A DNA stretch of 40,901 nt from contig JAYUVP010000027.1 of NCBI GenBank assembly GCA_043753995.1, positions 1-40,901 on the forward strand, given 5' to 3'. Below are positions 1,272 through 28,805 of the stretch, piece by piece. The stretch's first letter is position 1. Each line of letters starts with the position of its first letter. The DNA comes from Fibrobacterota bacterium (GTDB lineage: Bacteria; Fibrobacterota; Fibrobacteria; UBA11236). The notes beneath the pieces were generated by a model that made no database searches, had not been told where the DNA came from, and worked only from the letters and a program-made list of their open reading frames with translations. Made by a program: the position numbers and the translations under genes.

Positions 1272-2735
1272 TTACTGGACCACCTTATAAGCCTTTGTGC
1301 CGATGTGAAGCATATAGACGCCGTTTTTCAAGGAATTGGGAAGGCGATAGGTGCCTCCCGCCACACGAATCATTTCGATCCGTCGGCCATCTAATCCCGA
1401 AAGTGTGACATTCTCGCGTGAATCGGAAGCCAGGATCAAATGGTCACCCGTCCACCGATATGCCTTTGCCTTGGTGCCGGGATGTAGTTGGCGAGCCGCC
1501 ACGGTAGACATTTCTTTTATCCACTTCTCGACCCAATGGATGGCAAGGGTGTCCACTTCAAAGACGCCAAGTGGCGGCATTTGAGTGGGCACAGGATAAT
1601 AGGCATCCTCATTGTTGGGATTCAGGGCATTTCTTTGTTTCATCCGGAAAAGTATGGTCGATAATTCTGGATGACCGGGAAAAATGGCCATGGTTTGCAA
1701 GGCGTCACCCTTCGGCGATTTTATATAGGGCATGCTGTCATAGTGCACGGAGACGACCTTTCGCAAGTCTACCGTCCAGGTAAGAGCATTGTTGGCTGTC
1801 TTGATAAAGTCAAAGTTGAAGTCGTGCGGTGCGTGACCTAACGCCCCGATTGGAATCCCGCGAGTACCATGGCAGCCGGAGCAATTCGAGGCGATATAGG
1901 CTTTGGCACGTGTATCCAAGGATGTGGTCGTGTCCTCAATGCGCGCCCATTTGGGCATGGCCACGAGTTCCGCTTCGGTGGGTACAGCCTTATCCCAGGT
2001 GAAAATATTTTCCTGGAAAAGATTGCGAATCTGATTCAGGTTGGCGTCATGTCCGGTCTTACGATTGATTTGGGCAGCGAAAAACCCTAAAACCGTTCTC
2101 CCCTGCATTCCACTAATGTATTGGCGGTGGCAGGTATTGCATCCTCTCACCGAAGGGAAAGCCCATTTTCGAAAGGAAGGTTGTCCCTTGATTCGAAGTT
2201 TGAGGGTGGCCGTATCGCCTGCAATGCCAACCAGATTAGCCTCCGAACCATCGCGCTTCCATTTATAGCTGAAGGGATACCAATTATCGTGAGTCACTAT
2301 TTCCAAGGGTTCGGTGCTAAGCGTATCCCGTGTTTTTTTATTGACCAAGACCCGAGTTTCCCACCAAATGCGCGTGGTGGTGTCGCCGGGCACGGTGTCA
2401 TGCTTAAAAAGTTTGACAAATACGGCACCCTCGGGATATTCGAAATAATCGTTAGCGGGATCGAATTTAATTTTTGCCGTTCCAGGCTTTAACAAAATCC
2501 AGCGAGACATGTGAGCATTGTCGCTCCAAAAGGGAGTATTGACATCATAAGCAACAGCCTCATTGGTGACCGCGTGAGTACTCATGCTGCTATAAAAACC
2601 GGTTTTTGAAAACAGCTTGGGCACCTTGGCGGTGTCAGAGGGATCAAAGTGCAGCCAAGCCGAAATGGCCAAGTTGGGGCAAAAAGCGAAGCCCAAGCCG
2701 ACCCACTTCAAAAAGTGGATTTTGAAAAGTTGCAT
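1272..2735 (-). CDS. Di-heme c-type cytochrome (SO2930/TIGR03806-like) with T9SS-type CTD, paralog 1
   Basis: Start moved to ATG 2735 (MQLFKIHF…, signal peptide matching paralogs). Motifs: FSKTGFY, YDVNTPFWSDNA, YPEGAVFVKLF, ETRVL, YSYKW-like, FPSVRGCNTCH (2127-2141), RAKAYIASNCSGCH (1869-1883), PGHPELS, QMPPLG, WI. Tail LSGLDGR…LKNGVYMLHIGTKAYKVVQ. Confidence 0.85.
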   Translation of the reverse strand: MQLFKIHFLKWVGLGFAFCPNLAISAWLHFDPSDTAKVPKLFSKTGFYSSMSTHAVTNEAVAYDVNTPFWSDNAHMSRWILLKPGTAKIKFDPANDYFEYPEGAVFVKLFKHDTVPGDTTTRIWWETRVLVNKKTRDTLSTEPLEIVTHDNWYPFSYKWKRDGSEANLVGIAGDTATLKLRIKGQPSFRKWAFPSVRGCNTCHRQYISGMQGRTVLGFFAAQINRKTGHDANLNQIRNLFQENIFTWDKAVPTEAELVAMPKWARIEDTTTSLDTRAKAYIASNCSGCHGTRGIPIGALGHAPHDFNFDFIKTANNALTWTVDLRKVVSVHYDSMPYIKSPKGDALQTMAIFPGHPELSTILFRMKQRNALNPNNEDAYYPVPTQMPPLGVFEVDTLAIHWVEKWIKEMSTVAARQLHPGTKAKAYRWTGDHLILASDSRENVTLSGLDGRRIEMIRVAGGTYRLPNSLKNGVYMLHIGTKAYKVVQ

Positions 2736-3010
2736 TGGATTCAACCTATAGATTTTAGTCGCGAGCGTTATGGAATTTACCTGTAAACGAAATATTTTGC
2801 TTGCCATGAATTCGATGGGACCCTCTTGTTTGGAGTTGAAAACGGACCTGGCCAACCAAAGGTCTAAGCGAAAAAACAGCAAATTTCGCCACAGAATCAG
2901 GAAATCCCTGCGGTAAATACGGCATAAAAGGCGGAAATTTACTCGGCCCGCTTAAGAGATAGACCCTAGATTAGTAAGGGGTCCAGATACACGGTATTCA
3001 TGGGGAAAAA

Positions 3011-4717
3011 ATGAAAACAATTTCGATGGCGAGTTCCATTTTGGCTGTTTCCGCGGCCTTTTTGGAAATACAAGCCCAAACTTGCACTAAGCCAGCCACC
3101 GCGGATTGGCAAAAGGTGACTCTGGTGGATGGCAATTCACCAATGAAATTGGATCAACCGGTGAAAATGTCCATTCTTCCCGATGGTCGAGTCTTTGTCT
3201 GCGAAATGTGGTCGGGAAAAATCAAATTATTCACGCCAAATTCGGGGCTCACCGAAGTGGGTTCCATCACCGTTTACAGTGATGCCGTGGAGAATGGATT
3301 GCTTGGTATTGCGGTGGATCCAAAGTTTGCCACGAATAATTGGGTCTATGTGATGTACTCCCGCAAGTTGTCGGGAGCCAACTTTAGTGCTGGTGACGGC
3401 GGCGTTAGTCCGCATGAACATGTGCTCGCGCGCATGACTTTCGCCAATGGCAAGCTGGGAAATGCCAAGGATATCCTGACTTTTAGGCGACAGTCCAAAC
3501 GTCACGCCGCAGGCGGGCTTTCTTTCAATATTGCCACGGGGGATCTTTATATCCCCACCGGAGACGATGTCTATCCCTTGGTCGCAACCACCTATTGGGG
3601 CGGCCGCAATGAAACCAATGCCTATTTGTGTGACTTGGCCACAGCGGCAAATACCAATGACTTAAGGGGCAAAACATTGCGCATTAAGCCCCTTCCCTTT
3701 GCCGATACAGAAACTCCGGCACCGGGTGTAGGTACCACCTATAGCATACCCGAGGGTAATTTATTTCCCGCGAATACCGCCAAGACAAGGCCCGAGATTT
3801 ACACCATGGGCCATCGCAACCCCTATAAGATCAATGTCGACCCCGTGTCTGGAGTGGGACTTATCGGCGAAGTGGGGCCTGATGCTCCTGGCCCGGATGC
3901 GGCGCGTGGTCCCACCGGTTCCGATGAATTCAATTTGGTGACGGGACCGGGCAATTTTGGCTGGCCCTTCGCCATTGCCGATAATCAACCCTATATCGCC
4001 CATGATGGCGAGGCCTATACCAAGGGCACGACCTTTGACCTGAAGAATTTGAAGAACAAATCGAAATTCAATACAGGACTCGAGGACTTGCCACCGGCCA
4101 TTGGGGCCATGGCCTATTACAATGCCTTGAACTCACAAGCGGGTGCTAATAAGCCATTCGCCGGTGGATCCGAGAGTGCCATTTCTGGGCCTTATTATCG
4201 CTATGATGCCTCCAAGCCTGCGGTGCGCATGCCTGCTTTTTTTCACGGGAAGTGGATTGTCGGCGATTATGCGCGTGGAAAAGTGTGGTCTCTAGAGATG
4301 GATGCAAATAAAGGTCTCAAGCAAGTGGAGCAACTTTGGAATGTCTCCACCGTCATTGATCTTGCCATAGGACCGGAGGGTGACCTTTATGTTTTAACTC
4401 TGGGTGGCTCGAATGATGGCACCTTGTACAAAATGCAGTTCAAAGGCACCCATTATGCGGCGACCTCTTGCGAACAATATGTTTTGCCAGCAGCATCCAC
4501 CAGCATTGGTTCAGCTTTGGCGTCCTCTCCATCGAATGGCCAGCGGAAGCTAGTGAACCTGGCCTCCAGGGCCCCGATTCAAGCCCCTGCAGGTGCCGCA
4601 CAGGGCGTGTTTTATGATTTGAATGGCCAGCGTCTTTGGGAAGGCCCGGTTCAAGGGAATTACCTAAGTCTGCCTACTGGGCTAGGCAGCAGCCTTGGTT
4701 TTCTGCAATTCCGTTGA
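3011..4717 (+). CDS. PQQ-dependent sugar dehydrogenase family (GSDH beta-propeller) with T9SS-type CTD, paralog 1
   Basis: Signal peptide; ENGLLGIAVDPKF, HAAGGLSF, TGDD, NTNDLRGKTLRI, IPEGNLF, RPEIYTMGHRNP, GEVGPD, GNFGWP, GPEGDLYVL; tail FYDLNGQRLW…FLQFR. Confidence 0.85.
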   Translation: MKTISMASSILAVSAAFLEIQAQTCTKPATADWQKVTLVDGNSPMKLDQPVKMSILPDGRVFVCEMWSGKIKLFTPNSGLTEVGSITVYSDAVENGLLGIAVDPKFATNNWVYVMYSRKLSGANFSAGDGGVSPHEHVLARMTFANGKLGNAKDILTFRRQSKRHAAGGLSFNIATGDLYIPTGDDVYPLVATTYWGGRNETNAYLCDLATAANTNDLRGKTLRIKPLPFADTETPAPGVGTTYSIPEGNLFPANTAKTRPEIYTMGHRNPYKINVDPVSGVGLIGEVGPDAPGPDAARGPTGSDEFNLVTGPGNFGWPFAIADNQPYIAHDGEAYTKGTTFDLKNLKNKSKFNTGLEDLPPAIGAMAYYNALNSQAGANKPFAGGSESAISGPYYRYDASKPAVRMPAFFHGKWIVGDYARGKVWSLEMDANKGLKQVEQLWNVSTVIDLAIGPEGDLYVLTLGGSNDGTLYKMQFKGTHYAATSCEQYVLPAASTSIGSALASSPSNGQRKLVNLASRAPIQAPAGAAQGVFYDLNGQRLWEGPVQGNYLSLPTGLGSSLGFLQFR

Positions 4718-4764
4718 GCTTCGCTTGCCGAGGCGCCGGCCTTTATAAACGGCTTTTCTGACCC

Positions 4765-4807
4765 TGAAAAAACACCCACCGGCTTCAAGCCAGTGGGTGT
4801 TTTTTCA
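4765..4807. terminator. Bidirectional intrinsic terminator between convergent genes
   Basis: TGAAAAAACACCCACCGGCTT-C-AAGCCAGTGGGTGTTTTTTCA: long near-perfect inverted repeat with A-tract and T-tract on the two sides. Confidence 0.85.
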
Positions 4808-4841
4808 ACCTCATCATTTTGGGCCGGGGCCTTAGCAAACC

Positions 4842-6305
4842 TTACTTGACCACCTTATACGCTTTGTTTCCGACCCGAAGCATGTAGACGCCACTTCGAA
4901 GGGCCGAGGAGATGCGATAAGTATTTCCTGTCACGCGGACCAGTTCAACTTTTCGGCCATCTAGGCCGGTGAGGCTCACTTGGTCGCGAGCATCGGAAGC
5001 AAGAATGAGGTTATTTCCCAACCACCGAGGGGCAGAATTCTTAAAGCCAGCATGCCCATTGCGAATGCCCAAGGGCGGCATTTCCGTGATCCACTTTGTT
5101 AGCCAGCGTGTCGCCACGGTATCTACTTCATAGATGCCAGATAATTTCGGCATTTGCTCTTCCAAAGGAGTGTAGGCATTCTCATCGGTGGGGGGCAGCC
5201 TATTCCGCTGCTTCATGCGGAAAAGTATGGTGGACAATTCGGGACGGCCGGGGAAAATGGCCCTGGTTGGTAGGGTATCTCCATTCGGCAACTTGACATA
5301 GGGAATGCTGTCGTAATATTTGGAAATAACCGTTCGCAAATCAATAGTCGAAGTTAAGGCATTATTTTCGATCTTGAAAAAGTCGTAGTTGAAATCATGC
5401 GGCGCATGGCCTATCGCGTCGGTTGGAATCCCGCGAGTACCGTGGCAGCCGGAGCAATTCGCGGCTATATAGGCTTTGGCGCGGATATCCAGACTTACGG
5501 AGGTGTCTTCAATGCGCGCCCATTTGGGCATGGCTGTGAGTTCGGCTTCGGTGGGTACGGCCTTGTCCCAGGTGAGAATGTTTTTCTGAAAAAGATTGCG
5601 TATTTGATTAAGGCCGACATTACCCGCCGTGGGCCGATTGATTTGCTGTGCGAAAAAGCCCAATACCGTTCTTCCTTGGTTTGGGTAGGCGTATTGGCGG
5701 TGGCATTCATTGCACCCTCTCACCGAAGGGAATACCCATTTTCGAAAGGCAGGCTGTCCCTTTATCAGAAGATTAATGCTGGTCTCCTCCCCTTTAATTC
5801 CAACAAGATTCGCCTCGGAACCATCGCGCTTCCATTTATAGCTAAAGGGATACCATTTATCGTGGGTCACGATTTCCAAGGGGTCGGTGCCAACCGTATC
5901 CGTCGTCTTTTTATTAATCAAAACTCGAGTTTCCCACCAAATGCGGGTGGTGGTGTCGCCGGGCACCGTATCATGCTTGAATAGTTTGACAAATACGGCA
6001 CCCTCGGGATAATCGAAATAGTCCTGAGCGGGATCGAATTTGATTTTAGTCGAGGGCTTCAAAAGCACCCATCGATACTTGTGGGCATTGTCGCTCCACA
6101 AAGGTGAATTGACATCAAAGGCCACGGCTTCAGAGGTTACCGTATGCGTGCTCATGCTAGTATAAAAGCCGGTTTGGGAAAACAGCTTAGGAACCTTGGA
6201 CGTGTCGGCGGGGTCGAAATGCACCCAGGCTGAGAAGGCCATGGCAGGGACCACAGAAAGCCCCAAAAAGGCTCGTTGAATGGCTTTGAGTTTCAATATC
6301 TTCAT
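4842..6305 (-). CDS. Di-heme c-type cytochrome with T9SS-type CTD, paralog 2
   Basis: ATG 6305 lies 6 nt after GAGGTG; CNECH and CSGCH; QMPK; CTD LTGLDGRKV…LRSGVYMLRVGNKAYKVVK. Confidence 0.85.
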   Translation of the reverse strand: MKILKLKAIQRAFLGLSVVPAMAFSAWVHFDPADTSKVPKLFSQTGFYTSMSTHTVTSEAVAFDVNSPLWSDNAHKYRWVLLKPSTKIKFDPAQDYFDYPEGAVFVKLFKHDTVPGDTTTRIWWETRVLINKKTTDTVGTDPLEIVTHDKWYPFSYKWKRDGSEANLVGIKGEETSINLLIKGQPAFRKWVFPSVRGCNECHRQYAYPNQGRTVLGFFAQQINRPTAGNVGLNQIRNLFQKNILTWDKAVPTEAELTAMPKWARIEDTSVSLDIRAKAYIAANCSGCHGTRGIPTDAIGHAPHDFNYDFFKIENNALTSTIDLRTVISKYYDSIPYVKLPNGDTLPTRAIFPGRPELSTILFRMKQRNRLPPTDENAYTPLEEQMPKLSGIYEVDTVATRWLTKWITEMPPLGIRNGHAGFKNSAPRWLGNNLILASDARDQVSLTGLDGRKVELVRVTGNTYRISSALRSGVYMLRVGNKAYKVVK

Positions 6306-6356
6306 TCGCATCACCTCAGGGTTCAAATTACAAGAGTAAAAGGAATTACCGACCCT

Positions 6357-6394
6357 AAAAAAACACCCACCGGCTCAAGCCAGTGGGTGTTTTT
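6357..6394 (-). terminator. Intrinsic terminator (duplicated copy) between the two tandem cytochrome genes
   Basis: Minus strand: AAAAACACCCACTGGCTTGAGCCGGTGGGTG followed by a T7 run. Confidence 0.8.
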
Positions 6395-6424
6395 CGACCT
6401 CATGAATAGAGAGCTCTAAAGCAC

Positions 6425-7885
6425 TTACTTGACCACCTTATACGCTTTATTTCCGACCCGAAGCATATAGACGCCACTTCGAAGGGCGGAGGGAATGCGA
6501 TAAGTATTTCCTGTCACGCGGACTAGTTCGACCTTGCGGCCATCTAGGCCGGTGAGGCTAACTTGGTCGCGAGAATCGGAAGCAAGAATGAGGGTATTTC
6601 CCAACCACCGAGGCGCAGAAGATTTAAGGCCCGCATTTCCATTGCGAATGCCCAAGGGCGGCATTTCCGTGATCCACTTAGCTAACCAGCGTGTGGCCAC
6701 GGTATCTTCTTCAAAGACGCCTAGGGGTGGCATTTGAGCAGACACAGAGTAATAGGCATTCTCATCGGAAGGAGGCAGTCTACTCCTCTGTTTCATACGG
6801 AATAGAATGGTGGATAATTCTGGATGACCGGGGAAAATGGCCATGGTTAGCAAGGTGTCGCCAAGCGGTGATTTTACATAGGGCATGCTGTCATAGTGTT
6901 GCGAAGGAACCGATCGCAAGTCGACCGCAGCAACGAGCGCATTGTTGGCTGTTTTGAAAAAGTCATAGTTGAATTCATGCGGCGCATGGCCTATCGCCTC
7001 GGTTGGAATCCCGCGAGTACCGTGGCAGCCGGAGCAATTCGCGGCAATATAGGCTTTAGCCCGAAGATCCAAACTAACCGAGCTGTCCTCAATGCGCGCC
7101 CATTTGGGCATGGCTGCAAGTTCGGCTTCGGTGGGCACGGCCTTGTCCCAGGTGAGAATGTTTTTCTGAAAAAGATTGCGTATTTGATTGAGGCCGACAT
7201 TGCCCGCCGTGGGTCGATTGATTTGTTGTGCGAAAAAGCCCAATACCGTTCTTCCTTGGTTTGGGTAGGCATATTGACGGTGGCAGTCATTGCATCCTTT
7301 GACCGAGGGGAATGCCCATTTTCGAAAAGCAGGCTGTCCCTTTATCAGAAGATTGATGCTGGTCTCCTCCCCTTTAATTCCAACAAGATTCGCCTCGGAA
7401 CCATCGCGCTTCCATTTATAGCTAAAGGGATACCATTGGTCGTGGGTCACGATTTCCAAGGGTTCGGTACCAACCGTATCCGTCCTCTTTTTATTGATCA
7501 AAACTCGGGTTTCCCACCAAATGCGGGTGGTGGTGTCGCCGGGCACGGTGTCATGCTTGAAAAGTTTGACAAATACGGCACCCTCGGGATAATCGAAATA
7601 GTCCTGAGCGGGATCGAATTTGATTTTAGTCGAGGGCTTTAAAAGCACCCATCGATACTTGTGGGCATTGTCGCTCCACAAAGGTGAATTGACATCAAAG
7701 GCCACGGCTTCAGAGGTTACCGCATGCGTGCTCATGCTGGTATAAAAGCCGGTTTGGGAAAACAGTTTCGGAACCTTGGACGTGTCGGCGGGGTCGAAAT
7801 GCACCCAGGCCGAGAAGGCCATGGCAGGGACCACAGAAAGCCCCAATAAGGCTCGTTGAATGGCTTTGAGTTTCAACATCTTCAT
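6425..7885 (-). CDS. Di-heme c-type cytochrome with T9SS-type CTD, paralog 3
   Basis: ATG 7885 (alternative 7894) downstream of GAGG, which overlaps the stop of the upstream dehydrogenase; CNDCH and CSGCH; QMPP; same CTD as paralog 2. Confidence 0.85.
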   Translation of the reverse strand: MKMLKLKAIQRALLGLSVVPAMAFSAWVHFDPADTSKVPKLFSQTGFYTSMSTHAVTSEAVAFDVNSPLWSDNAHKYRWVLLKPSTKIKFDPAQDYFDYPEGAVFVKLFKHDTVPGDTTTRIWWETRVLINKKRTDTVGTEPLEIVTHDQWYPFSYKWKRDGSEANLVGIKGEETSINLLIKGQPAFRKWAFPSVKGCNDCHRQYAYPNQGRTVLGFFAQQINRPTAGNVGLNQIRNLFQKNILTWDKAVPTEAELAAMPKWARIEDSSVSLDLRAKAYIAANCSGCHGTRGIPTEAIGHAPHEFNYDFFKTANNALVAAVDLRSVPSQHYDSMPYVKSPLGDTLLTMAIFPGHPELSTILFRMKQRSRLPPSDENAYYSVSAQMPPLGVFEEDTVATRWLAKWITEMPPLGIRNGNAGLKSSAPRWLGNTLILASDSRDQVSLTGLDGRKVELVRVTGNTYRIPSALRSGVYMLRVGNKAYKVVK

Positions 7886-7896
7886 TCGAATCATCC

Positions 7897-9711
7897 TCAA
7901 GGTTCAAATTGCAAGAACACTAATTTTTCAGTGGTATGGGTCGGTAGTCGCAATTGACCCTTCATCACGCGGCCCTGCCAAATCTTAGCACCTTTCAAAC
8001 TGAAGAGGCTGCCTTGAGTCATGCCAGCGGGGGCTGACACTTGGGAGGTCATCCCCAAACGTACCATGCGCATGCCATTCACCCCATGGGTTTTAAATGA
8101 CATTGCGGCACTGATAGAGACTCCGGTGCGGGCGGGATGCACATAGGTAGCGGGACAGGTTGCCGTGTCATAGTGGGTGCCCGTGAAAGCCAGTTTGTAA
8201 ATACTGCCCGTATTCAAATCGCCTTGATAGTCGCCGGTGGCGCTGAAGCCATATTCCAAAACATAGAGCTCGCCATTGGGGCCAATGTCCATATCAATGA
8301 CTTTACCCGGACTGTATAGGTTGTCGATTTTTTTGACCGTATTGTTGGCATTTAATTCAATAGCAAAAATGCGATTGCGGCTCCAATCACCCACTATCCA
8401 CTTGCCGTGAAAATAGGCGGGCAGTCGACCCTTGGCCGTATCCTTGGCATTATATCGATAATAAGGCCCTGAAACCGCGGCCGATCCCGCGCCTCTATTG
8501 CTGTTTAAAGCCGTAAAGGGTTCGGCCGCATTTTGGCCGCTGCAGTAATAAGCTAAGGCAGGAGTTGCCGGGGGCAAATCCTGTAGGCCAGTATTGAGCT
8601 TGGAAAGGTTTTTCAAAGCATTCGCGTCGAATTTCGTGCCGACGGCATAGGCTTCACCGGTAAGGGCCGTGTACATCAAGTTGTTTGCATTCGCGAAAGG
8701 CCAGCCGAAATTGGCTGCCTTCAGCACCAGATTGTATTCATCATGGCCAATGGGTCCCTTGGCAGCATCGGTGCTGCGGGCATCTGGCCCGACTTCCCCA
8801 ATCATACCGACGCCACTGATTGGGTCGACACTGATTCGATAGGCATTGCGATGACCCATGGTATAAATCTCGGGCCGGGTCTTTTCCGTGCCGACGGGAA
8901 AGAGATTTCCCGCTGGAATGGTATAGGCTTTTCCGACCCCCATGCCGGGAGTCTCGGTATCGGCAAAGGGAATGGGCTTAATGCGCAAGGTTTTCCCGCG
9001 CAAGTCATTGGTATTGCCGGAGCTGCGAAGCGAATTCAAAAAATCGGATTCTTCATTGCGCCCGCCATACATAGTAGAGGGGCTTCCAGGGTAGGTGTCG
9101 TCGCCAGTGGTAACAAGCAAGTCGCCCGTGCCTTTGTCAAAGGTCATGCCACCGGCGGCATGGCGTGCGGATTCGCGCGGCATACTGAGCATGTCCTTGG
9201 GATTGCTGAGTTTTCCATCGATCACGCTATAGCGCCTTAGCATATGTTCATGCGCCCGAATGCCATTATCACCGGCAGCATGAGTCACATCAGAAATCTT
9301 GCGCGAGAAGAAAACGTATATCCACTTATTAGTAGCATAATTGGGATCGGCGGCAATGCCGAGCAAGCCATTTTCAACGCCTGCGCCTTGAGCACTTGAA
9401 TTGTCGCGATAAACATCGATGGTGCCCACATCGGTAACAACGGAAGTGGCGACATCCAAAAACTTGACCTTGCCCGACCACATTTCAGCAATGAAAATAT
9501 TGCCATTGGGCAAAATCGACATTTGCGAGGGCCGATTCAATTTGCCCGAGGCTCTGGCCACCAATTCCACCTTGCTGAATTGGTTGGTCGCAGGTAAGGC
9601 GCATTGGGCGTGGGCCGAATATGCACAAGCCAGGGCCAAGAAAATCAAGCCCAACTCAAATCTCTTAAGACTTGTCAATTTCGCCTCCACAGAAAACTCT
9701 TTGGGAATCAT
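7897..9711 (-). CDS. PQQ-dependent sugar dehydrogenase family (GSDH) with T9SS-type CTD, paralog 2
   Basis: Signal peptide (…AYSAHA|Q; GTG 9690 is an alternative start); ENGLLGIAADPNY, RHAAGG, TGDD, NTNDLRGKTLRI, RPEIYTMGHRN, GEVGPD, NFGWP; tail LFSLKGAKIW…FLQFEP. Stop is 11 nt from the next cytochrome start, implying an operon. Confidence 0.85.
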   Translation of the reverse strand: MIPKEFSVEAKLTSLKRFELGLIFLALACAYSAHAQCALPATNQFSKVELVARASGKLNRPSQMSILPNGNIFIAEMWSGKVKFLDVATSVVTDVGTIDVYRDNSSAQGAGVENGLLGIAADPNYATNKWIYVFFSRKISDVTHAAGDNGIRAHEHMLRRYSVIDGKLSNPKDMLSMPRESARHAAGGMTFDKGTGDLLVTTGDDTYPGSPSTMYGGRNEESDFLNSLRSSGNTNDLRGKTLRIKPIPFADTETPGMGVGKAYTIPAGNLFPVGTEKTRPEIYTMGHRNAYRISVDPISGVGMIGEVGPDARSTDAAKGPIGHDEYNLVLKAANFGWPFANANNLMYTALTGEAYAVGTKFDANALKNLSKLNTGLQDLPPATPALAYYCSGQNAAEPFTALNSNRGAGSAAVSGPYYRYNAKDTAKGRLPAYFHGKWIVGDWSRNRIFAIELNANNTVKKIDNLYSPGKVIDMDIGPNGELYVLEYGFSATGDYQGDLNTGSIYKLAFTGTHYDTATCPATYVHPARTGVSISAAMSFKTHGVNGMRMVRLGMTSQVSAPAGMTQGSLFSLKGAKIWQGRVMKGQLRLPTHTTEKLVFLQFEP

Positions 9712-10029
9712 AAACAGAGTTTAATCAGGAATGGCGAAAATTGCAGGGCAAACTGTGGTTTTCTCAGTACAGGAATCGGTCTTCAAATTCCCCCGTAATT
9801 CCTTTCCTATTGGTGGTTTATATCGGTTTGCGGCTCTCCATTTGATTTGCAATAAAGGCATGGACTTGCCATTTTGAGTAAACAAATCCTGAGAGACTCT
9901 CTAAGCACTCAAAGAAACCACTTTTCGCGAATTATGTCTTTCATTTGACGGTGCGGCTCTGGAGTTGATGGGATTAGCCCCCCATAATGGGTCTAGATCA
10001 AACCCATTGCCATATCATCGAGGTCCACG

Positions 10030-10350
10030 ATGGACTATGAAATGAACCTTGAAGCCCAGCATAAACAAAGTCAGGTGCGTAAATTGGCGCATAAGCTGGC
10101 CAATAATCGCTCCAAAAAACGAGTGGTGCGCCGCTTACCTCGCGCTTACACAATAGTGCGGAGGCGAGGGAGTCCCTTGAACCAAGTGCGTACATCGCTC
10201 AATACCCACAAGGTGGGTGGCTATGCCCTGCTGGTGGGCCTGGCTTTGGCCGCTTTTATTTTGGACTTCAATGATGAGTCATTGGCCAGCTTGCGCGAAA
10301 CGGTCAATGAATTCGCTACCCTCCCGTCCCAGCTTTTCGGCAAAACCTAA
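10030..10350 (+). CDS. Small hypothetical membrane protein
   Basis: GAGG RBS 6 nt before ATG; basic N-terminal region, one hydrophobic helix (GYALLVGLALAAFIL); fills the gap between two dehydrogenase genes. Confidence 0.55.
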   Translation: MDYEMNLEAQHKQSQVRKLAHKLANNRSKKRVVRRLPRAYTIVRRRGSPLNQVRTSLNTHKVGGYALLVGLALAAFILDFNDESLASLRETVNEFATLPSQLFGKT

Positions 10351-10394
10351 GGTCGCCGAAGCCAGGAAGGGCTTATTCCGTCGCCGATTCGGCT

Positions 10395-12050
10395 TCAGTA
10401 GCTGAATTGCACGCGATAGAGGCCGCTGCCCTGCATGCTAGGGATTTCGATGCGACGAGAGGCCGTGGCGTCCACGGCATGGCTCCACAGCAGCTTGCCT
10501 TGCAAATCATAGAGCTTTAAGCCCTTGGCTTCAGCGGGCAGGGAAAGTGCGTGATGGCCATTGGCCCCCAGGGAAAGGAGGGTGGTATGGGCTGCGAGCC
10601 TTTGGTTGGCCTTGCGGTTTTCAAGGGCTGTCGGACCCGTGCAGGCCGCACCTTTGTATTCCCAGCGGGCAATCCGGGTGCGATTATCGGTGACCCAATA
10701 GGTATTGGCTGAGGCGTATTCCAAGGTATAAAGCAAGCCATCCGGGCCAATCGACACTTGCAAAAGGCTACCGGGTAGGGTTTGCAGGCTTTTCTCCTCG
10801 GTCTTTTTTGAGCTGGTCTCGTTATCCAGGGAGATGACATGCAGCCAGCCTAATTTCCAGTCGCCCACAAACCATTTTCCGTCGAAATGCGGAGGCAGCT
10901 TTTTCGTGGAGTTGGGGTAAAAGCTATAGCGGTAAACTGGACCCGCGATGGCGGCGGCCTGCTGGTAACCCACGGTAGCGCCTATGGCCGCTGGTAATTT
11001 CTGTACGCCAGTATTCTGGGTCGAGGTATTCATGGGTGCATTGGCGTCCTTGCTCAGACGATAGCTGTATTTGGCATACCCTGCGGAACCGGCAAAATAG
11101 GGCCAGCCAAAAAATCCAGGCTTTTGGGTCAGGTTGTATTCCTCGGATAGCAGGCCTTCATCGGGCCCGACATCCCCCCAGGTCAATGATCCTTTTAACG
11201 GGTCGATGTCTATGGTGTAAGGATTACGCATGCCCATGCCATAAATTTCGGGCTTGATCTTGGTCAATTCATCGGCCGTGTACTGGGAGGCGTAAAAATC
11301 CTTGAAGTTCCCGGGGGGCACGGTATAGCTGCCTTCAGGGGTTGGCTTAATACGCAAGATCTTGCCGCGATAATCATTGGTATTGGCCGCATGCGCTTGA
11401 TCGTTGGCATCGCCACCTGCAAAGCTTTCGTCGACATAGGCCTTGGCATCAGAGGGGTCGGGGGGGTTGCGTGTATTATTGCCCACCGAAATGAGAAGGT
11501 TTCCGCTGGCGTCGAATTTCAAATCGCCGCCGGTATGGCAGCAATAGTTCTTGTGATAATCAAAAGACATCAGGACTTTCTCGGAACCGAGATCCAGGTT
11601 ATTGGAATTCACGGTGAAACGAGAAACCTTCATCACATCCGGGGAAGGCGGTTGATACGTCACATAGAGAAAGTGATTGGTTTCGAAGTTGGGATCGAGG
11701 GTCAGGCCGGTGAGGCCCATTTCATCGCTTCCGCTCTGATCTTTTTTCAGGGGCGAGCCGATGGGGAAGACGGAAATCGCGCCAATCTTGGTGATGGAGC
11801 CATCGGTTTTCACGACCTTGATGGCGCCGCCGCGTTCCGCAAAATAAACCTCGCCATTTTTGGCCACAGCGAAACGTACAGGTTCGGCCAGGGAATTGTC
11901 CTTGGTTTTATTGACTAAGGATACGAGTTCGAAATTTGCGGAGGTTACGGCCTCGCAACCGGGATAGGTAAAGGAGGTTTGCCCGGAAACCTGGGTCGCT
12001 ATGGCGACTAGGGAGAAGGAAAGGGCTTGGCTCAAACGGGAAAACTCCAT
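10395..12050 (-). CDS. PQQ-dependent sugar dehydrogenase family (GSDH) with T9SS-type CTD, paralog 3 (CCH type)
   Basis: Signal peptide; EMGLTGLTLDPNF, YCCHTGGDLKFD, NTNDYRGKILRI, PEIYGMGMRNP, WGDVGPD, FFGWPY, GPDGLLYTLEY; tail LKLYDLQGKLLW…SGLYRVQFSY. Confidence 0.85.
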   Translation of the reverse strand: MEFSRLSQALSFSLVAIATQVSGQTSFTYPGCEAVTSANFELVSLVNKTKDNSLAEPVRFAVAKNGEVYFAERGGAIKVVKTDGSITKIGAISVFPIGSPLKKDQSGSDEMGLTGLTLDPNFETNHFLYVTYQPPSPDVMKVSRFTVNSNNLDLGSEKVLMSFDYHKNYCCHTGGDLKFDASGNLLISVGNNTRNPPDPSDAKAYVDESFAGGDANDQAHAANTNDYRGKILRIKPTPEGSYTVPPGNFKDFYASQYTADELTKIKPEIYGMGMRNPYTIDIDPLKGSLTWGDVGPDEGLLSEEYNLTQKPGFFGWPYFAGSAGYAKYSYRLSKDANAPMNTSTQNTGVQKLPAAIGATVGYQQAAAIAGPVYRYSFYPNSTKKLPPHFDGKWFVGDWKLGWLHVISLDNETSSKKTEEKSLQTLPGSLLQVSIGPDGLLYTLEYASANTYWVTDNRTRIARWEYKGAACTGPTALENRKANQRLAAHTTLLSLGANGHHALSLPAEAKGLKLYDLQGKLLWSHAVDATASRRIEIPSMQGSGLYRVQFSY

Positions 12051-19193: not shown

Positions 19194-20174
19194 ATGGGTG
19201 TAGAAGAGTTGATGCGCAAGCGGCTAGAGATCTTGCTGGGTGATGAGGAAATGGTGACGTCTTACTTGCGCACCTATGGTCCTCAAATTGACTTGGCCAA
19301 GGTGAATTTATTGAAAGAATCGCGCCGCAAGGTGGCGGCCGCTGCCGCCAAGCCCGATGCCGGAGGTTCCGACGATCCAACCTATACCGTGCAGGTGAAA
19401 TGCCCGATATGCGGCATGGCGGGCATTACCTGCTATGAGTTGAAATCCAAATCCCTGGCGGTGATCACCGATCGCTTTTTCGTTCCTCGCTATGCGCCAG
19501 TGAGAGGTTTCCTCAATTTGAATTACAATCTCTATGCCGTCACAGTTTGTCCCAAATGTCTTTTCGCCTCTCCCGACAAAAAGGATTTCATCACCTGGTC
19601 CATACAGACCAAGTCGGATGTGAAATCGCAGCTAGGCCCCTTTGTCTTGGAAGAGCTGAAAAATCGCCTCGAAACGCGCAAGAAAATGCTAGAGGGCGTG
19701 ACCGACTATGCCAAGCATTTCGTCCATCCCCGCACCATCGCTTCGGCTGTCGACAGTTTGCGGCTAGCCATCCATCGCGCCTTGGTCGAGACCACCTTGG
19801 ACGTGCCGCTGTCCTATTACAAGGCTGCCATGTATCAACTGAAAATAGCGCTCTTCATGCGAGATGCCGGTAAGGACGATGAGTCCGTCGTCAAAGAGGC
19901 CTTGCCGCTATTGATGAAGGCTTTTGGCCGCAATGAATCGGCGAATCCTGATTTCGAGTATCAAATGCTGAATGCCCTGGTGGCCATGAACTTGCGCTTG
20001 CAGAACTTCGAAGGAGCGCAAAGTTATCTCGGCGTTTTGGAAAAACTGAAAACCGAGCGCTTGAAGGCAGTTCAGGAAGATCCTTCGATCAAGGTAGGCG
20101 CGGTAGAGAAGTGGGTCGATGCCACCAAGGATATGTGGACCAATCGTGAGGATCCCGATTTGTGGAAGCATTGA
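19194..20174 (+). CDS. DUF2225-family zinc-ribbon/helical protein
   Basis: VKCPICG and VTVCPKCLFAS followed by TPR-like helices; ATG 19194 follows a purine-rich RBS (GGAGAAAGG). Confidence 0.75.
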   Translation: MGVEELMRKRLEILLGDEEMVTSYLRTYGPQIDLAKVNLLKESRRKVAAAAAKPDAGGSDDPTYTVQVKCPICGMAGITCYELKSKSLAVITDRFFVPRYAPVRGFLNLNYNLYAVTVCPKCLFASPDKKDFITWSIQTKSDVKSQLGPFVLEELKNRLETRKKMLEGVTDYAKHFVHPRTIASAVDSLRLAIHRALVETTLDVPLSYYKAAMYQLKIALFMRDAGKDDESVVKEALPLLMKAFGRNESANPDFEYQMLNALVAMNLRLQNFEGAQSYLGVLEKLKTERLKAVQEDPSIKVGAVEKWVDATKDMWTNREDPDLWKH

Positions 20175-23086
20175 GGGCTCCGGCGCGAATAAGTTTGTCA
20201 CTCCTTCGGGTGGCGACTTTTCTTGTCGCCGGTTTAGCGGTTTTCGCGCAATCCCAAGGCCTGGACGTCAGCGGTTTTACCAGCCTGGATGGATCGGCAG
20301 CGGGGTCCACGTCCATGTCCTGGCTGAGACTTCCCGTGGGCGCGCGCAATGTGGCCATGGGCGGGCACAGCCTCACCACCGACGAAGAAGCCACGGCCCA
20401 AATCGACAATCCCGCCATGGTGGCCCAGGCCGCCAATTCGGACTATGCCCTGTCGCATTCGGAAATCCTGGGGGAATTCCGCGTCGAGCGGCTTTCCCTC
20501 GCCATGCCCTGGCGCTACGGGGGAAACCTGGGAGTTACGGTAGGGGCCATGTTCACGGGGGCCTTCGAGAATGCCCGCGACATTGACGAAGAATCAACCC
20601 AGCCTTCGGCGGGCGATTTGCTCGTGGGTGCTGCCTTCGGTCGCAATTTCCTTGATGGGCGATTGGCTTTAGGCGCGCGTCTCGACCTTTATCGCAGCGC
20701 TATCGAAGACGTCTCCGCTTATGGCGGTGGCTTGGGCCTTGGGGCTACCCTGGCTTTAGGTCTAGACTGGCGCCTCGCAATGGCATTACGCAATATCGGG
20801 CCTGGCCTCGCCTATGACACGCCTGAGAGCGAATGGCAGGGACAGCCCATGGCCTGGAATCTCGAAATCGGCAAACCTTTATTTCTCGACTCCTGGTCGA
20901 CGCATCTTGGCTTGGAGCATGAGGCCAATGGCGTCCTGCGTTACTATGCGGGAGGAGAATGGTTTTGGCGCGACCTCTTGCTTTTCCGGCTTGGCTATGA
21001 AGGGGCAACCCAAGATCGGGAAATCGACGCCTTAGCCGGCATCTCGGCCGGAATGGGTGTGCGATGGGAGGGCATTACCGTCGACTATGGCTTCAAGCAT
21101 TTCGGCTATTTGGGCGCCTATCACGCCTTCGGCTTGTCTTATGCCAAGAAATTAAAAGATCGGCGCAATGATGAATTTCTTTTGCGCAAGGCCAAGGCCA
21201 GTTATGCCGAAGGGGATTATCATCGCGCATTTAAACTGACTAAGCGCGCCTTGGGATATAACCCCAAGAATTATCAGGCCCAAGCCTTCCTAAGCATAGT
21301 CCTTGCCGATTTGGAGCGCCTTGACGAGCGGGCCATCTCTATTCTTTTCACTGCCAATACCCACGGTAATCTCGCGCCGCAATGGGTGGCGGGCAAACCG
21401 CTGGGGGGCTTGGCCCGAAGAGCCGCCAAGCTCAAGGAATTGCGCCAATCCTATCCCCACAATGTGCTCATCGACGCCGGGGATTTGCTCACCGCCACCG
21501 CCAAGGACGAGACGCGCGGCTTCATGGCGGCGGCGTACGCCCACATGAAATACGATGCCATCGGCGTGGGGCCCTTGGAAATGGCGCGCGGCAATGCCTT
21601 GCTGGGAAATGACTTGCCCTTTATCGCCAGCCAAGAGCCATGGTCGAATTTCGGTGGCGGGGTTTCCGCCTCCTATGGCAAAAAACTTCCGAGCGGTGGC
21701 AAATTGATTTTGCTTTCCATCAGCCTGGACGCGCAGGCGGCACAAGGGGAGCCTCTCGAAGAAGCCGAAGCCGCCTTGATCCGGCATCTCGATAAGGTCG
21801 AGGATCGCGATCTCGTGGTGGTGATGGCCAATGGCACCTTGCAAAGGGCTTATTTGCTGGCGCAAAAAGTGGGTCGCATCGATATCCTCGTGATGTCGGG
21901 AGAAGGGTCGCCACTGCAAGTTCCCATGCAGGTCGGCCGCACCTATTTGGTTTGTCCTGGTCGTGACGGTAATTATTTGGGGCAGTTCAGCCTCGTCTTC
22001 GACAAAGCCGGCAAGCGCAAAAGCCATAATCATCGACTCATCGCCCTCGATGCCAAGGTTCCCGAAGACGAGGCGGTGGCGCGGCTGCTCAGCGCCGCCA
22101 TCGTCAATCTCAATAAGACCTTATTCGGCGATGGCGAGCTCGAACTCACGGCCAAGGTTCTGCCCTATGTCGACGATAGCGCCGAGGTGAAGGGTCGATT
22201 GCATCTTGTCGATCTCATCACCGGCGCTACCTATGACTTGCCGACCGTGGGCCTGCCTGTGGCCGAGCCCGCCGTGGCCTGGGGCCGCAATCTCATCGCC
22301 TTCACCAGCGCCACCGAGGGCGGAGCCCGTGAGCTTTTTGCTTTCACTCCCGGCAAGGACTCGCTGGATACCTTGACCGATCAAGGCGGCGCCATGAGCC
22401 AGGAGATATTCGGCTTACGGGGCAAGGCGGTTTTCGCCCTTTACCAAAACGGAGATCAAAGTGATCTGGTACGAATAGATCCTTGGCGTCACGAAATGAA
22501 TAATTTGACCCAGGGCCGTATGGGGTATGTGCGGAGTTTCGCCCTTTCTCCCCAGCAAGACCAATTGATTTTTGCCGCACGCCTGGGGAATGATGACATC
22601 ATCACCCTTTCCGGCGCCGACCTTTCTCAACCGATGGAAGTCGCCAAGGTTCCCTATGTCGTAGGCCGCATGGCCTGGAGCCCTGACGGAGAGAGCTTCG
22701 CCTTCCTCGAAGGGCAGGAAGGCGACACCACCGGGGAAATTGAAATTTACGATATGCGCTTAAAAGGCCTACGTACCTTGACCGGCGGCAGTTCGGTGCA
22801 TGAATTGGCTTTTTCTGCGGACAGCAAACAACTTTATTTCACCGCCGGCACCACGGTTTCCGATTTGAATGCCGCCGATTTAGAGACCTTGGCTTTGAAA
22901 AAGCTCACCTCCCAATCCTTGACCTTGCGCAGCGAGCGCCATCCCGTAGTGCGCAACTTGGACGGCAGGGAAATGCTGATCTTCCTAGCGGAAGACAAAG
23001 AGGGCCGCCGTATCTTGGCCATCGATCCACAAAGCCAAGTCGAGCGCGAAATTCTTTCGCCGCGTCCAGGTCTACGATTGAAATAG
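20162..23086 (+). CDS. PorV/PorQ (UPF0164)-like beta-barrel fused to TPR, degenerate 5'-nucleotidase-type metallophosphoesterase domain and TolB-like propeller
   Basis: WLRLPVGARNVAMGG…NPA (PorV-type N-terminus); barrel ends GAYHAFGLSY; TPR (AKASYAEGDY..A…ALGYNPKN); ILFTANTHGNL…GGLARR…LIDAGDLL…YDAIGVGPLE; WSPDG/FSADS repeats. TTG 20171 overlapping the DUF2225 stop is an alternative start. Confidence 0.75.
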   Translation: MEALRAPARISLSLLRVATFLVAGLAVFAQSQGLDVSGFTSLDGSAAGSTSMSWLRLPVGARNVAMGGHSLTTDEEATAQIDNPAMVAQAANSDYALSHSEILGEFRVERLSLAMPWRYGGNLGVTVGAMFTGAFENARDIDEESTQPSAGDLLVGAAFGRNFLDGRLALGARLDLYRSAIEDVSAYGGGLGLGATLALGLDWRLAMALRNIGPGLAYDTPESEWQGQPMAWNLEIGKPLFLDSWSTHLGLEHEANGVLRYYAGGEWFWRDLLLFRLGYEGATQDREIDALAGISAGMGVRWEGITVDYGFKHFGYLGAYHAFGLSYAKKLKDRRNDEFLLRKAKASYAEGDYHRAFKLTKRALGYNPKNYQAQAFLSIVLADLERLDERAISILFTANTHGNLAPQWVAGKPLGGLARRAAKLKELRQSYPHNVLIDAGDLLTATAKDETRGFMAAAYAHMKYDAIGVGPLEMARGNALLGNDLPFIASQEPWSNFGGGVSASYGKKLPSGGKLILLSISLDAQAAQGEPLEEAEAALIRHLDKVEDRDLVVVMANGTLQRAYLLAQKVGRIDILVMSGEGSPLQVPMQVGRTYLVCPGRDGNYLGQFSLVFDKAGKRKSHNHRLIALDAKVPEDEAVARLLSAAIVNLNKTLFGDGELELTAKVLPYVDDSAEVKGRLHLVDLITGATYDLPTVGLPVAEPAVAWGRNLIAFTSATEGGARELFAFTPGKDSLDTLTDQGGAMSQEIFGLRGKAVFALYQNGDQSDLVRIDPWRHEMNNLTQGRMGYVRSFALSPQQDQLIFAARLGNDDIITLSGADLSQPMEVAKVPYVVGRMAWSPDGESFAFLEGQEGDTTGEIEIYDMRLKGLRTLTGGSSVHELAFSADSKQLYFTAGTTVSDLNAADLETLALKKLTSQSLTLRSERHPVVRNLDGREMLIFLAEDKEGRRILAIDPQSQVEREILSPRPGLRLK

Positions 23087-27113: not shown

Positions 27114-28805
27114 TCACTCGGTTTTATAGTTCACGATAAAGCATTCAAAGTCGACGGCCATGGAGGCTAGCATGGCCGTGTCGGCCTGGGTTTTCTCCAA
27201 GCCGACATGCGCGGCGCGTGCCGAAGCTTGCAAGGTGGTCGCTTCTTGGGCCATGTTCCGGCTGGCTGTCGCCGCATGCGAAAGGCTACTGCTCATCTCG
27301 CGGGTCGTCGCGGTTTGTTCCTCCACCGCGCTGGCTATGGAGGCTTGAAAGGCGTGAATGCGATCGATGATTTCCTTCAAGTCCTTCATGGAGATGGACA
27401 CGCCGGTGGTGCCTTCTTGAATCGAGGTGATTTTGGCGGCGATGGTTTCGGTGGCGGTGGAGGTGTGGCGCGCCAATTCCTTGACCTCGCTGGCGACTAC
27501 GGCAAAGCCTTTGCCTGAGGCTCCCGCGCGCGCGGCTTCGATAGTGGCATTCAAAGCCAATAAATTGGTTTGTTCGGCGATATTCTGGATCAATTGCAGG
27601 ACATCGCCAATTTCGCGACTGCTGACATCCAGCCTATTCATGTCCTGATGAGCATGTTGGACTATGCTCACGGCCTCTTTGACCACCGTGGTCGCTTCGA
27701 CGGTATGACGGCCGATTTCCTGTATGCTGGCCGACATTTGCTCGGTGGCTGCCGCCACGGATTGCACCACGCTATTGAGTTGATCGGCTTCACCGGTCAT
27801 TCGGTCCATCAATTTTGTCGTGGCGCGAGCGCTATCGTCGGCCTCCAAATTGGCTTCCGTCAGGCTGGCGGAACTGGAGGTGAGGACATTCGAAGTGCGT
27901 CGGAGAGCCGTGATTTGATCCCGAAGGCTTTGCACCAAATCCTGTATGCCTGTGGCAAGCCTTCCCACATCATCATTGCCCTCATTGGGAATTTGCACGG
28001 TCAAGTCCTTGCTGGCCGCGCATTCCACGGCTTCGCGCAGCCGGGCGGTACGTTGGCTTAGCCGCGAAGTGAATCGGCGATAAGTCGCCAACAATAATCC
28101 GAGCAGGCCAAGTACCAGGAAAAAAATCAATCCCACTTTTTGGGCCATGGCCCGCGAGGCGGCCAAGGGCTTTTCGACTTCCAGGTCGACTTCGAGTACG
28201 CCGCGCATATCGCCGACTTGCCAATCCCGTTTGGGCGAGTCTGGATGGGAATTGTGGCAGGCAACACAACTTTCTTTCATGCGATCGGCCGCAGCCAGCC
28301 GTACTTTCGCGGGCTTCGAGCTTTCATCCAGAAGAGAGAATATGGAATCGGGATGACCTTGTAAAAAGGCAAGGGCAGCCTCGGCAAAAGCGTCGAGGTG
28401 ACGACCCTTTCGTTCGGGGAAAGGAAAGCGGCTATAAAGCTTCATTTGGGTACCGGATTTCGTACCCTCAAGTTTGGCACTCAAATCATGAATGACGGTC
28501 GCAGGCAGGGGAATGGTTCCGGGCTTGTCGAGATAATGCGACGAAGCGGTCAATTTGCCTTCCGCTGCGGGTAATTTGGCAATGACATTTTCGGTGTAGT
28601 AGGCGCGCAAATTCCGGTATTGCTGTACCGTGCTATGGGCTGAAGCGACCGAAGCCGCCACGGTATTGGCGCGCGACACGCTCACTATCAGGAATAATGC
28701 CGCACCAAGGCCCACCGCGGCCAGGCTGAGCAAAATCCAGGTAGCCAGATTCAGGCGGTTTTCGATACCGAGTCGTGGCTTTGCAAGCTCTGGGGATATT
28801 TTCAT
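27114..28805 (-). CDS. Methyl-accepting chemotaxis protein with periplasmic heme-c (DUF3365/Tll0287-like) sensor
   Basis: Two TM helices flank IPLPAT…YSRFPFPER…ESCVACHNSHPDSPKRDW.VGD.RGVLEV; HAMP; IAEQTNLLALNATIEAARAG..GKGFAVVASEVKELA. Confidence 0.9.
   Translation of the reverse strand: MKISPELAKPRLGIENRLNLATWILLSLAAVGLGAALFLIVSVSRANTVAASVASAHSTVQQYRNLRAYYTENVIAKLPAAEGKLTASSHYLDKPGTIPLPATVIHDLSAKLEGTKSGTQMKLYSRFPFPERKGRHLDAFAEAALAFLQGHPDSIFSLLDESSKPAKVRLAAADRMKESCVACHNSHPDSPKRDWQVGDMRGVLEVDLEVEKPLAASRAMAQKVGLIFFLVLGLLGLLLATYRRFTSRLSQRTARLREAVECAASKDLTVQIPNEGNDDVGRLATGIQDLVQSLRDQITALRRTSNVLTSSSASLTEANLEADDSARATTKLMDRMTGEADQLNSVVQSVAAATEQMSASIQEIGRHTVEATTVVKEAVSIVQHAHQDMNRLDVSSREIGDVLQLIQNIAEQTNLLALNATIEAARAGASGKGFAVVASEVKELARHTSTATETIAAKITSIQEGTTGVSISMKDLKEIIDRIHAFQASIASAVEEQTATTREMSSSLSHAATASRNMAQEATTLQASARAAHVGLEKTQADTAMLASMAVDFECFIVNYKTE

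Follow-up and report, generated by a model that had tools for sequence, protein, structure and literature searches.

We analysed a 40,901-nucleotide stretch of DNA from a Fibrobacterota bacterium (the window; contig JAYUVP010000027.1 of assembly GCA_043753995.1), in which six open reading frames (ORFs) between positions 1272 and 12050 encode three GSDH-fold propellers (gdhA, gdhB and gdhC) and three diheme proteins (cytA, cytB and cytC; Table 1). A sequence-only reading had described them as secreted pyrroloquinoline quinone (PQQ)-type sugar dehydrogenases clustered with secreted di-heme cytochromes c. ORF positions, Pfam GSDH matches and TIGR03806 homology confirm six genes of two families, with positions 2735 and 7885 as in-frame ATG starts of cytA and cytC. 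We conclude that the locus is probably a carbohydrate-directed exported redox module, and that the labels 'PQQ-type' and 'cytochrome' both say more than the sequences do. The host genome (5.2 Mb, 97% complete) contains three heme-copper oxidase subunit I matches and, judged by gene content, belongs to an aerobe; three cytochrome c assembly matches supply the heme c maturation genes that the sequence-only reading proposed to look for, and close gdhA homologues carry the source labels Fibrobacteria or Fibrobacterota. Within the locus, gdhA diverges from cytA and converges with cytB, and cytA is 70–71% identical to cytB and cytC. The cytB/cytC duplication (4746–6335 versus 6337–7916) retains 89% DNA identity over 1592 nt and includes a terminator-like hairpin. 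Because the duplicate spans this hairpin and the cytB copy brought just ~30 nt of sequence 5′ of its start, cytB expression may depend on read-through. The inverted repeat at 4765..4807 presumably acts as a terminator; a promoter and terminator scan gave chance-level counts (11 versus 11.2; 16 versus 14.9).

Table 1 Genes and features of the propeller–diheme locus
Feature	Position	Strand	Description
cytA	1272..2735	-	487 aa; SO2930/TIGR03806-like diheme protein; signal peptide, P460-like heme-1 domain, type IX secretion system (T9SS)-like tail; second CxxCH accompanied by a conserved Met
gdhA	3011..4717	+	568 aa; six-bladed GSDH-fold propeller; H165, R269, N270 retained; T447/I449 at last-blade Arg pair
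Inverted repeat, terminator-like	4765..4807	.	Between convergent gdhA and cytB; 43 nt, 93% self-complementary, flanking A/T runs
cytB	4842..6305	-	487 aa; recent tandem duplicate of cytC, 90% aa identity
Terminator-like hairpin, second copy	6358..6394	-	Between cytC and cytB
cytC	6425..7885	-	486 aa; diheme protein; start 11 nt past gdhB stop
cytC C-terminal Ig-like tail (424–491)	6428..6631	-	Like a T9SS C-terminal domain (CTD)
cytC heme-2 CxxCH (289–293)	7022..7036	-	Invariant Met390 the likely sixth ligand
cytC heme-1 CxxCH (203–207)	7280..7294	-	Closes P460-like beta-sheet domain
cytC Lys112	7565..7567	-	Aligns with heme cross-link Lys78 of M. capsulatus cytochrome P460
gdhB	7897..9711	-	604 aa; GSDH-fold propeller; 51% identical to gdhA; H184, R288, N289 retained; K470/I472 at Arg pair
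gdhC	10395..12050	-	551 aa; GSDH-fold propeller; 29% identical to gdhA/B; H172, R275, N276 retained; S428/L430 at Arg pair

All three propellers score well above the Pfam GSDH (PF07995) cut-off (97–114 bits versus 25), as the sequence-only reading had anticipated. A model of gdhA (mean predicted local distance difference test score (pLDDT) 92.9) matches 3a9g best (Z 40.8, root mean square deviation (rmsd) 2.1, 327 residues aligned), followed by 2g8s (Z 37.4), soluble glucose dehydrogenase (sGDH; Z 31–32), HHIP (Z 25–30) and AA12 (Z 27–28), and an ESM Atlas search returned just unnamed or GSDH clusters. Alignment to E. coli YliI, in which we take H147 to be the catalytic His and R214/N215 its Arg-Asn partners, reveals His, Arg and Asn in gdhA, gdhB and gdhC, and propeller paralogues in the host genome retain them in 23/23, 23/23 and 20/23 cases, respectively. 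The last-blade Arg-x-Arg of YliI (R341/R343), which by analogy with sGDH R406/R408 presumably holds the PQQ carboxylates, is absent from the window propellers and replaced by Thr/Ile (gdhA), Lys/Ile (gdhB) or Ser/Leu (gdhC). Its second Arg occurs in none of 23 paralogues and none of the 221 homologues with a locatable motif (from a set of 240), and its first in 1/23 and 24/221. In the host genome pqqC was not found and pqqE gave no match above cut-off; across 61 genomes pqqC was detected once, in the positive control. Because the Arg pair is absent and neither pqq gene was found above cut-off, PQQ dependence of the window propellers appears doubtful: the part of the expected binding site formed by His, Arg and Asn is present but the presumed carboxylate-holding part is not, and the 'PQQ-type' designation is not supported. 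Scavenging of external PQQ by the host is possible. The signature of AA12-type enzymes likewise includes a C-terminal Arg (Arg622; bioRxiv 2026.07.10.737718).

The three diheme proteins carry two CxxCH motifs apiece and match TIGR03806 with E values of 1e-36 to 1e-39, but their scores of 126–135 bits lie far under the curated cut-off of 313.3, which was reached in 0/61 genomes. By sequence they are divergent TIGR03806 homologues and not curated members; the wider SO2930 family comprises 3,500 clusters at E 1e-30. In a model of cytC (mean pLDDT 89.9; residue numbers follow a 491-aa ORF), residues 39–246 align with cytochrome c′-beta 7s5o (Z 5.1, 129/156 residues) and P460 structures 9hrk and 6hiu (Z 5.0, 129/144 and 126/143 residues), with rmsd values of 3.8–3.9 over the P460/c′-beta matches, which are the only ones listed for this part of the protein and cover most of each target. 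An hhalign comparison of a six-sequence PF16694 profile with the heme-1 domain gave 86.8% probability against 0.1% for three control profiles, and the CxxCH lies in register with the PF16694 profile in a global alignment; PF16694 itself matched none of 85 diheme members. The cytC segment with Lys112 as its last residue aligns with the 6hiu segment that ends at residue 78, tabulated as the heme cross-link lysine (PMC11928373). Lys112 is retained in 77/85 lineage sequences, 140/156 aligned segments and 55/57 GSDH-fused sequences, and Glu130 (157/157 aligned segments) and Arg132 (150/157) fall, in a register of low confidence, on the strand matching the distal carboxylate (Asp102/Glu96).

From the models, heme 1 of the diheme protein thus looks like that of cytochrome P460. 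Because a P460-like first domain with a Lys at the cross-link position stands beside a second heme, the diheme 'cytochrome' may be catalytic rather than the plain electron carrier that the sequence-only reading took it for. Lys alone is insufficient for cross-linking, for which other pocket residues and peroxide are also required (PMC11928373). Heme 2 is a probable His/Met electron-transfer heme because Met390 is invariant. A PDB sequence search with cytC gave no match, an 85-sequence diheme profile matched PDB entries across the CxxCH stretches only, Foldseek with the diheme model returned no match at E 0.001, and the whole-model structure search listed no known fold for the heme-2 region. 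Elsewhere in the host genome (L122; G000:C93:21465-21737) lies a gene for a free-standing cytochrome P460-family protein (PF16694) that has the Lys motif.

All six window proteins begin with a hydrophobic stretch and, by hydropathy, have no later membrane helix. A signal peptide and T9SS-like tail had been proposed for each; the N-termini and the relatedness of the tails agree with this, but TIGR04183 matched only cytB (19.7) and cytC (18.1), both under the cut-off of 23, and gave no match for cytA, gdhA, gdhB or gdhC. An hhalign comparison (97%) shows the two tail types to be homologous, and the tail is common to 7/7 diheme paralogues and 14/23 propellers. In the cytC model, the tail aligns with the T9SS cargo CTD 8gl8_D (Z 7.3, rmsd 2.3, 63 residues aligned; four further CTD entries listed); 3wdh_A, an Ig-like domain unrelated to T9SS, scores just as well (Z 7.4). 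Among core T9SS components, SprA is above cut-off in the host genome and the window holds a PorV-family gene and a PorZ-like gene, the latter below cut-off, but GldK stays below cut-off. Searches for GldM and GldN gave nothing, and their controls were silent as well. Export by a T9SS-like route is plausible on this gene content. The window also encodes (20162-23086, + strand) a 974-aa protein in which a PorV-family barrel is joined to TPR, UshA-like 5′-nucleotidase and TolB-like propeller repeat regions.

Propellers and diheme proteins recur together well beyond the window. In the host genome we count 7 full-length diheme genes and some 25 propellers, with further propeller-then-diheme pairs on contigs C58 and C61. 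Genomes of the host family contain GSDH (31/31), DUF1080 (31/31) and TIGR03806 (29/31) matches (tallies that include genome G021), and neither DUF1080 nor TIGR03806 occurs in any of 22 genomes from two further families of the class. We examined 80 regions around the strongest TIGR03806 matches in 26 genomes (G021, G030:C276, G037:C350, G036:C236 and weak partial matches were omitted) and found 4 fusions, 14 loci with a propeller within 600 bp, 4 with one further off and 58 with none. In total 26 propeller genes lie near a diheme gene versus ~5 expected from genome-specific densities, a ratio that is not a clean statistic as the loci are related. The three closest gdhA orthologues (60–78% identity) each adjoin one of the closest diheme orthologues (49–64%), and long distant diheme homologues are GSDH fusions in 10/14 and 51/56 cases. 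Several of the long fusions carry CBM6, CBM35, ricin, PA14 or a true T9SS tail, upholding the proposed carbohydrate link; a Pfam scan of 38 of the 56 found Por_Secre_tail above cut-off in 4. Diheme proteins also pair with DUF7133 and with another, unnamed propeller family. The proposed partnership therefore stands, in the host genome, its relatives and fused homologues, as conserved but not obligatory: 18/80 loci are fused or adjacent and 58/80 lack a GSDH neighbour.

A quick tree places gdhA, gdhB, gdhC and 12/13 diheme-adjacent propellers in a clade with ThuA/DUF1080 fusions (SH-aLRT 99), and 16/16 diheme-fused propellers in a separate clade (support 100). On this tree we rejected the idea that the window is a split form of the GSDH–SO2930 fusions, and with it a simple 'split' analogue as first imagined. 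We likewise rejected a general clustering of secreted genes near diheme genes, with several secreted families at 0–0.5× and GH9-like, GH10-like and esterase-like secreted families (labelled by inspection) absent from all 80 loci; ABC-type, BNR-propeller-like and porin-like families are enriched 3–8×. Three further neighbours recur. One family of secreted, tailed, propeller-like proteins without a Pfam match (L048:8863-10743 and 9 other loci) is ~8-fold enriched near diheme genes, often stands beside DUF1080 and has 8 copies in the host genome. An outer-membrane-protein-like family with no Pfam match (L042:2428-3921 and 8 other loci), also ~8-fold enriched, could serve product import. In 12 loci (L062, L071, L074, L075, L081, L084, L087, L093, L107, L110, L111, L113) the diheme gene lies beside a HupE/UreJ-family membrane protein gene, mostly in place of a propeller.

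The relatives of gdhA point to a possible substrate chemistry. Among the best 120 of 2799 longer gdhA homologues, ThuA domains occur in 116, DUF1080 in 80 and CxxCH in 25; these 120 form 9 clusters at 60% identity, with ThuA present in 8. DUF1080 or ThuA genes lie in 9/22 propeller-holding loci from 6 genomes, among them L059, with a same-strand ThuA–propeller–DUF1080–diheme run, and L070 and L085, which hold two of the three gdhA orthologues nearest to the window gene, and one diheme protein is fused directly to DUF1080 (P0277). Bacteroidota-type members of the gdhA clade carry an ordinary monoheme cytochrome c, and in the window lineage the diheme protein appears to stand in for this same-chain partner. 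The host genome encodes 17 DUF1080 and 17 ThuA proteins above cut-off, most signal-like at the N-terminus by eye. 3-Ketoglycoside oxidoreductases include GMC flavoproteins, and no GMC oxidoreductase was found in the host genome (the control matched in 5/14; the family in 3/24 genomes); its 6 Gfo/Idh/MocA proteins, found with a profile from 3 sequences that may miss distant members, have no evident signal peptide. With no GMC enzyme found and no evidently exported Gfo/Idh/MocA protein, the exported set lacks 3-dehydrogenases of the known types, and the propellers are, on gene content, natural candidates for the missing oxidation step. DUF1080 proteins are 3-keto-glucoside lyases/hydratases (bioRxiv 2024.03.25.586180), and the literature presents LacABC and ThuAB as 3-dehydrogenases that depend on cytochrome c (PMC8121099). 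A flavin counterpart of the proposed pairing exists elsewhere, as a 900-aa open frame with GMC oxidoreductase C-terminal and DUF1080 matches (G015:C92:25336-26490, + strand).

The clade fusions and flanking ThuA and DUF1080 genes favour C3 oxidation feeding an oxidation–elimination cleavage, and we propose the following sequence, each catalytic step of which we infer. Heme would be attached in the periplasm before exit by a SprA/PorV-type route. Outside, the His/Arg/Asn face of the propeller would bind a glycoside and oxidize a ring hydroxyl, most likely at C3, with some cofactor that is not PQQ bound in the canonical way. DUF1080 (perhaps also ThuA) proteins, with genes in other parts of the genome, would then cleave the 3-keto glycoside by elimination and hydrate it. 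The diheme protein would re-oxidize the propeller, with electrons entering at the His/Met heme 2, moving to an open-sided and possibly Lys-cross-linked heme 1 and discharging to O2, H2O2 or another small acceptor; discharge at heme 1 would make an extracellular respiratory chain unnecessary. This complete scheme of C3-oxidizing propeller, diheme re-oxidation and DUF1080/ThuA cleavage is a tentative one, to which we give somewhat less than an even chance.

Several observations weigh against it. Neither a DUF1080 nor a ThuA gene is present in the window, and only 2/23 host propellers have one within 10 kb. DUF1080 fusions essentially represent one Streptomyces-type cluster (80/82 members), DUF1080 is found in 0/25 CxxCH-bearing longer gdhA homologues, and the long diheme homologues contain DUF1080 in only 1/56 cases and ThuA in 0/56. 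The excess of DUF1080 near diheme genes is modest (10 versus ~4 expected, from non-independent loci), and the tail hidden Markov model (HMM) detects just 4/17 host DUF1080 proteins. The diheme protein is also joined to FG-GAP/ASPIC propellers in 4/14 distant homologues; the 58 diheme loci without a GSDH propeller within ~5 kb include 26 with a flank of <2 kb, and 46/80 loci have none of three counted propeller types. The P460 fold scores are middling, and GldK is sub-threshold.

The best-surviving alternative, although we think it unlikely, makes the diheme protein the enzyme: the P460-like heme 1 would perform oxidation or peroxide chemistry with heme 2 carrying electrons, and the propeller would be a cofactor-less sugar-binding or scaffold partner (HHIP-like) or a non-redox lyase or lactonase. 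Retention of Lys112 (140/156), Glu130 (157/157) and Arg132 (150/157), the association of one diheme type with many partners (two GSDH clades, FG-GAP/ASPIC, DUF7133 and the unnamed propeller family), the missing PQQ arginines and pqqC, and the propeller fold of human HHIP (Z 28–30) are all consistent with it. However, the redox-site His and Arg are each invariant in the 23 propeller paralogues, the propellers are structurally nearest to aldose sugar dehydrogenases (Z 37–41), and the clade members with a monoheme cytochrome c imply that the propeller yields electrons. Distinctly unlikely is a version of the sequence-only reading in which aldoses or oligosaccharides would be oxidized at C1 with scavenged PQQ, in the manner of cellobiose dehydrogenase (CDH) and AA12, and the diheme protein would feed lytic polysaccharide monooxygenases (LPMOs), Fe(III) or quinones. 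It draws on the GSDH fold and His/Arg/Asn site, on E. coli YliI, which we take to work on scavenged PQQ, and on two AA10 LPMO genes in the host genome; PQQ uptake by non-producers has been stated (bioRxiv 2026.07.10.737718), and a Cellvibrio japonicus cytochrome domain is able to reduce an LPMO (PMC12542752). Against this version, the second position of the Arg pair is Arg in 0/23 paralogues and 0/221 homologues, pqqC occurs in 1/61 genomes, AA12 matches the fold less closely (Z 27–28, 14% identity), and a comparable Teredinibacter turnerae domain pair, with a different propeller annotation (PF08450–X173), neither bound PQQ nor oxidized glucose (PMC10916295). Least probable is a periplasmic or cell-surface role in which sugar electrons enter respiration or the diheme protein handles NO, hydroxylamine or peroxide independently of propellers: three heme-copper oxidase matches, the sub-threshold CTD HMM scores and GldK, the NH2OH or NO activity of known P460 and c′-beta proteins (PMC11928373) and the majority of diheme loci without a GSDH neighbour fit it, but the tail on 7/7 diheme paralogues and 14/23 propellers, which in the cytC model resembles T9SS cargo CTDs and generic Ig-like domains about equally, and the fused homologues with true Por_Secre_tail (4/38 scanned) and polymer-binding modules argue for export.

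The proposed C3-oxidation scheme has a broader form, which we consider rather improbable: a widespread secreted oxidation–elimination glycan system of aerobic bacteria, built on GSDH-fold propellers without canonically bound PQQ, in which the SO2930 family would be a large unrecognized P460 branch using a Lys-cross-linked heme as extracellular oxidant or electron sink. If true, it would take heme P460 chemistry outside nitrogen metabolism. The locus bears on bacterial extracellular oxidative polysaccharide chemistry and on the role of secreted cytochrome proteins joined to carbohydrate-binding modules (CBMs), for which the T. turnerae study identified no cofactor and no substrate; in the window, both halves occur as small soluble proteins from separate genes. 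Thousands of proteins in the propeller group bear the annotation 'PQQ-dependent sugar dehydrogenase' despite an incomplete PQQ site, and a positive result would re-annotate both this group and the SO2930 family. Should neither 3-keto products nor a P460 cross-link be found, the locus would be one lineage's expansion of two catalogued, uncharacterized families.

Other genes of the window and host genome complete the picture. A secreted PHB-depolymerase-like esterase with a short tail lies directly 3′ of cytA on the same strand (140-1198, −), a 106-aa ORF sits inside the 683-bp gdhC–gdhB gap (10030-10350, +), and a chemoreceptor carries a Tll0287-like heme c sensor domain with one CxxCH (27114-28805, −). 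In the host genome, two tandem AA10 LPMO genes follow directly 3′ of a ThuA gene on one strand (L117; G000:C62:6074-8640). An 867-aa tailed protein (G000:C240:16662-19265, + strand) begins with a PKD-like region, continues with a propeller-like one and includes a peroxidase-like domain with two CxxCH motifs, making it, by inspection, another apparent secreted propeller–diheme design.

The closest described proteins contradict the initial view that no such system was known: T. turnerae TERTU_3803 and TERTU_2567 are in print as secreted GSDH-like/cytochrome c/CBM proteins and have already been likened to AA12 (PMC12055684). They share with C. japonicus Cbp2D secreted bacterial c-type cytochrome domains joined to CBMs, and additionally have GSDH-like domains and were detected in the secretome (PMC10916295, PMC12055684); the GSDH-like part of TERTU_3803 does not bind PQQ (PMC10916295). 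Compared by description only, the T. turnerae and Cbp2D proteins are single polypeptides with X183/X132 cytochromes from Gammaproteobacteria, whereas the window has separate genes, T9SS-like tails and a TIGR03806-like diheme protein. Fungal CDH and AA12 (6jt5, 6h7t) also combine an extracellular sugar-oxidizing domain with a heme domain, and AA12 has the propeller fold (Z 27–28), but they use a b-type heme domain with flavin (CDH) or a full PQQ site (AA12, 14% identity) and have no heme c or P460-like site; the window proteins contain neither a flavin GMC domain nor an AA12 propeller joined to a b-type cytochrome domain. For the periplasm, six-bladed PQQ enzymes encoded next to diheme c4 genes have been described (bioRxiv 2026.07.10.737718).

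Taken singly, each half has catalogued relatives. PQQ-dependent sGDH and aldose dehydrogenases (1c9u, 2g8s, 3a9g, 2ism) share the six-bladed fold (Z 31–41) and His/Arg/Asn site; the window propellers differ in lacking the last-blade Arg pair, in ~100 extra residues, a secretion tail and ~25 paralogues, and in a host where pqqC was not found. TIGR03806 proteins (SO2930/HNE_0200) likewise have two CxxCH motifs, with GSDH fusion in annotated members, but the window proteins are below cut-off, soluble, tailed and adjacent to propellers from a clade distinct from that of the fusions; function is uncharacterized throughout the family, SO_2930 being named in one paper, in a table only (PMC4837345). 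P460/c′-beta proteins (6hiu, 9hrk, 7s5o; PF16694) have a beta-sheet domain ending in CxxCH that the heme-1 domain resembles at middling fold scores (126–129 of 143–156 residues aligned) and share a Lys at the Lys78 position; the window diheme protein differs from them by a second heme, large insertions, no PF16694 match and a carbohydrate rather than nitrogen context; the sections of a P460 review covered here mention no diheme or fused members (PMC11928373). The 3-ketoglycoside pathway (AL/BT2156-2159, LacABC, ThuAB) has the same DUF1080 and ThuA partners (bioRxiv 2024.03.25.586180; PMC8121099), but its oxidoreductases include NAD-dependent Gfo/Idh/MocA enzymes and act on small glycosides in the periplasm, whereas here the oxidoreductase would be a propeller and is probably extracellular. 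In the open-access literature we found no description of the split, tailed propeller–diheme pairing, an SO2930–P460 link, ThuA–propeller fusions or a tie of such propellers to 3-ketoglycosides. Both window families are already catalogued, and what appears new is their split, tailed arrangement, the 3-ketoglycoside tie and the P460-like site.

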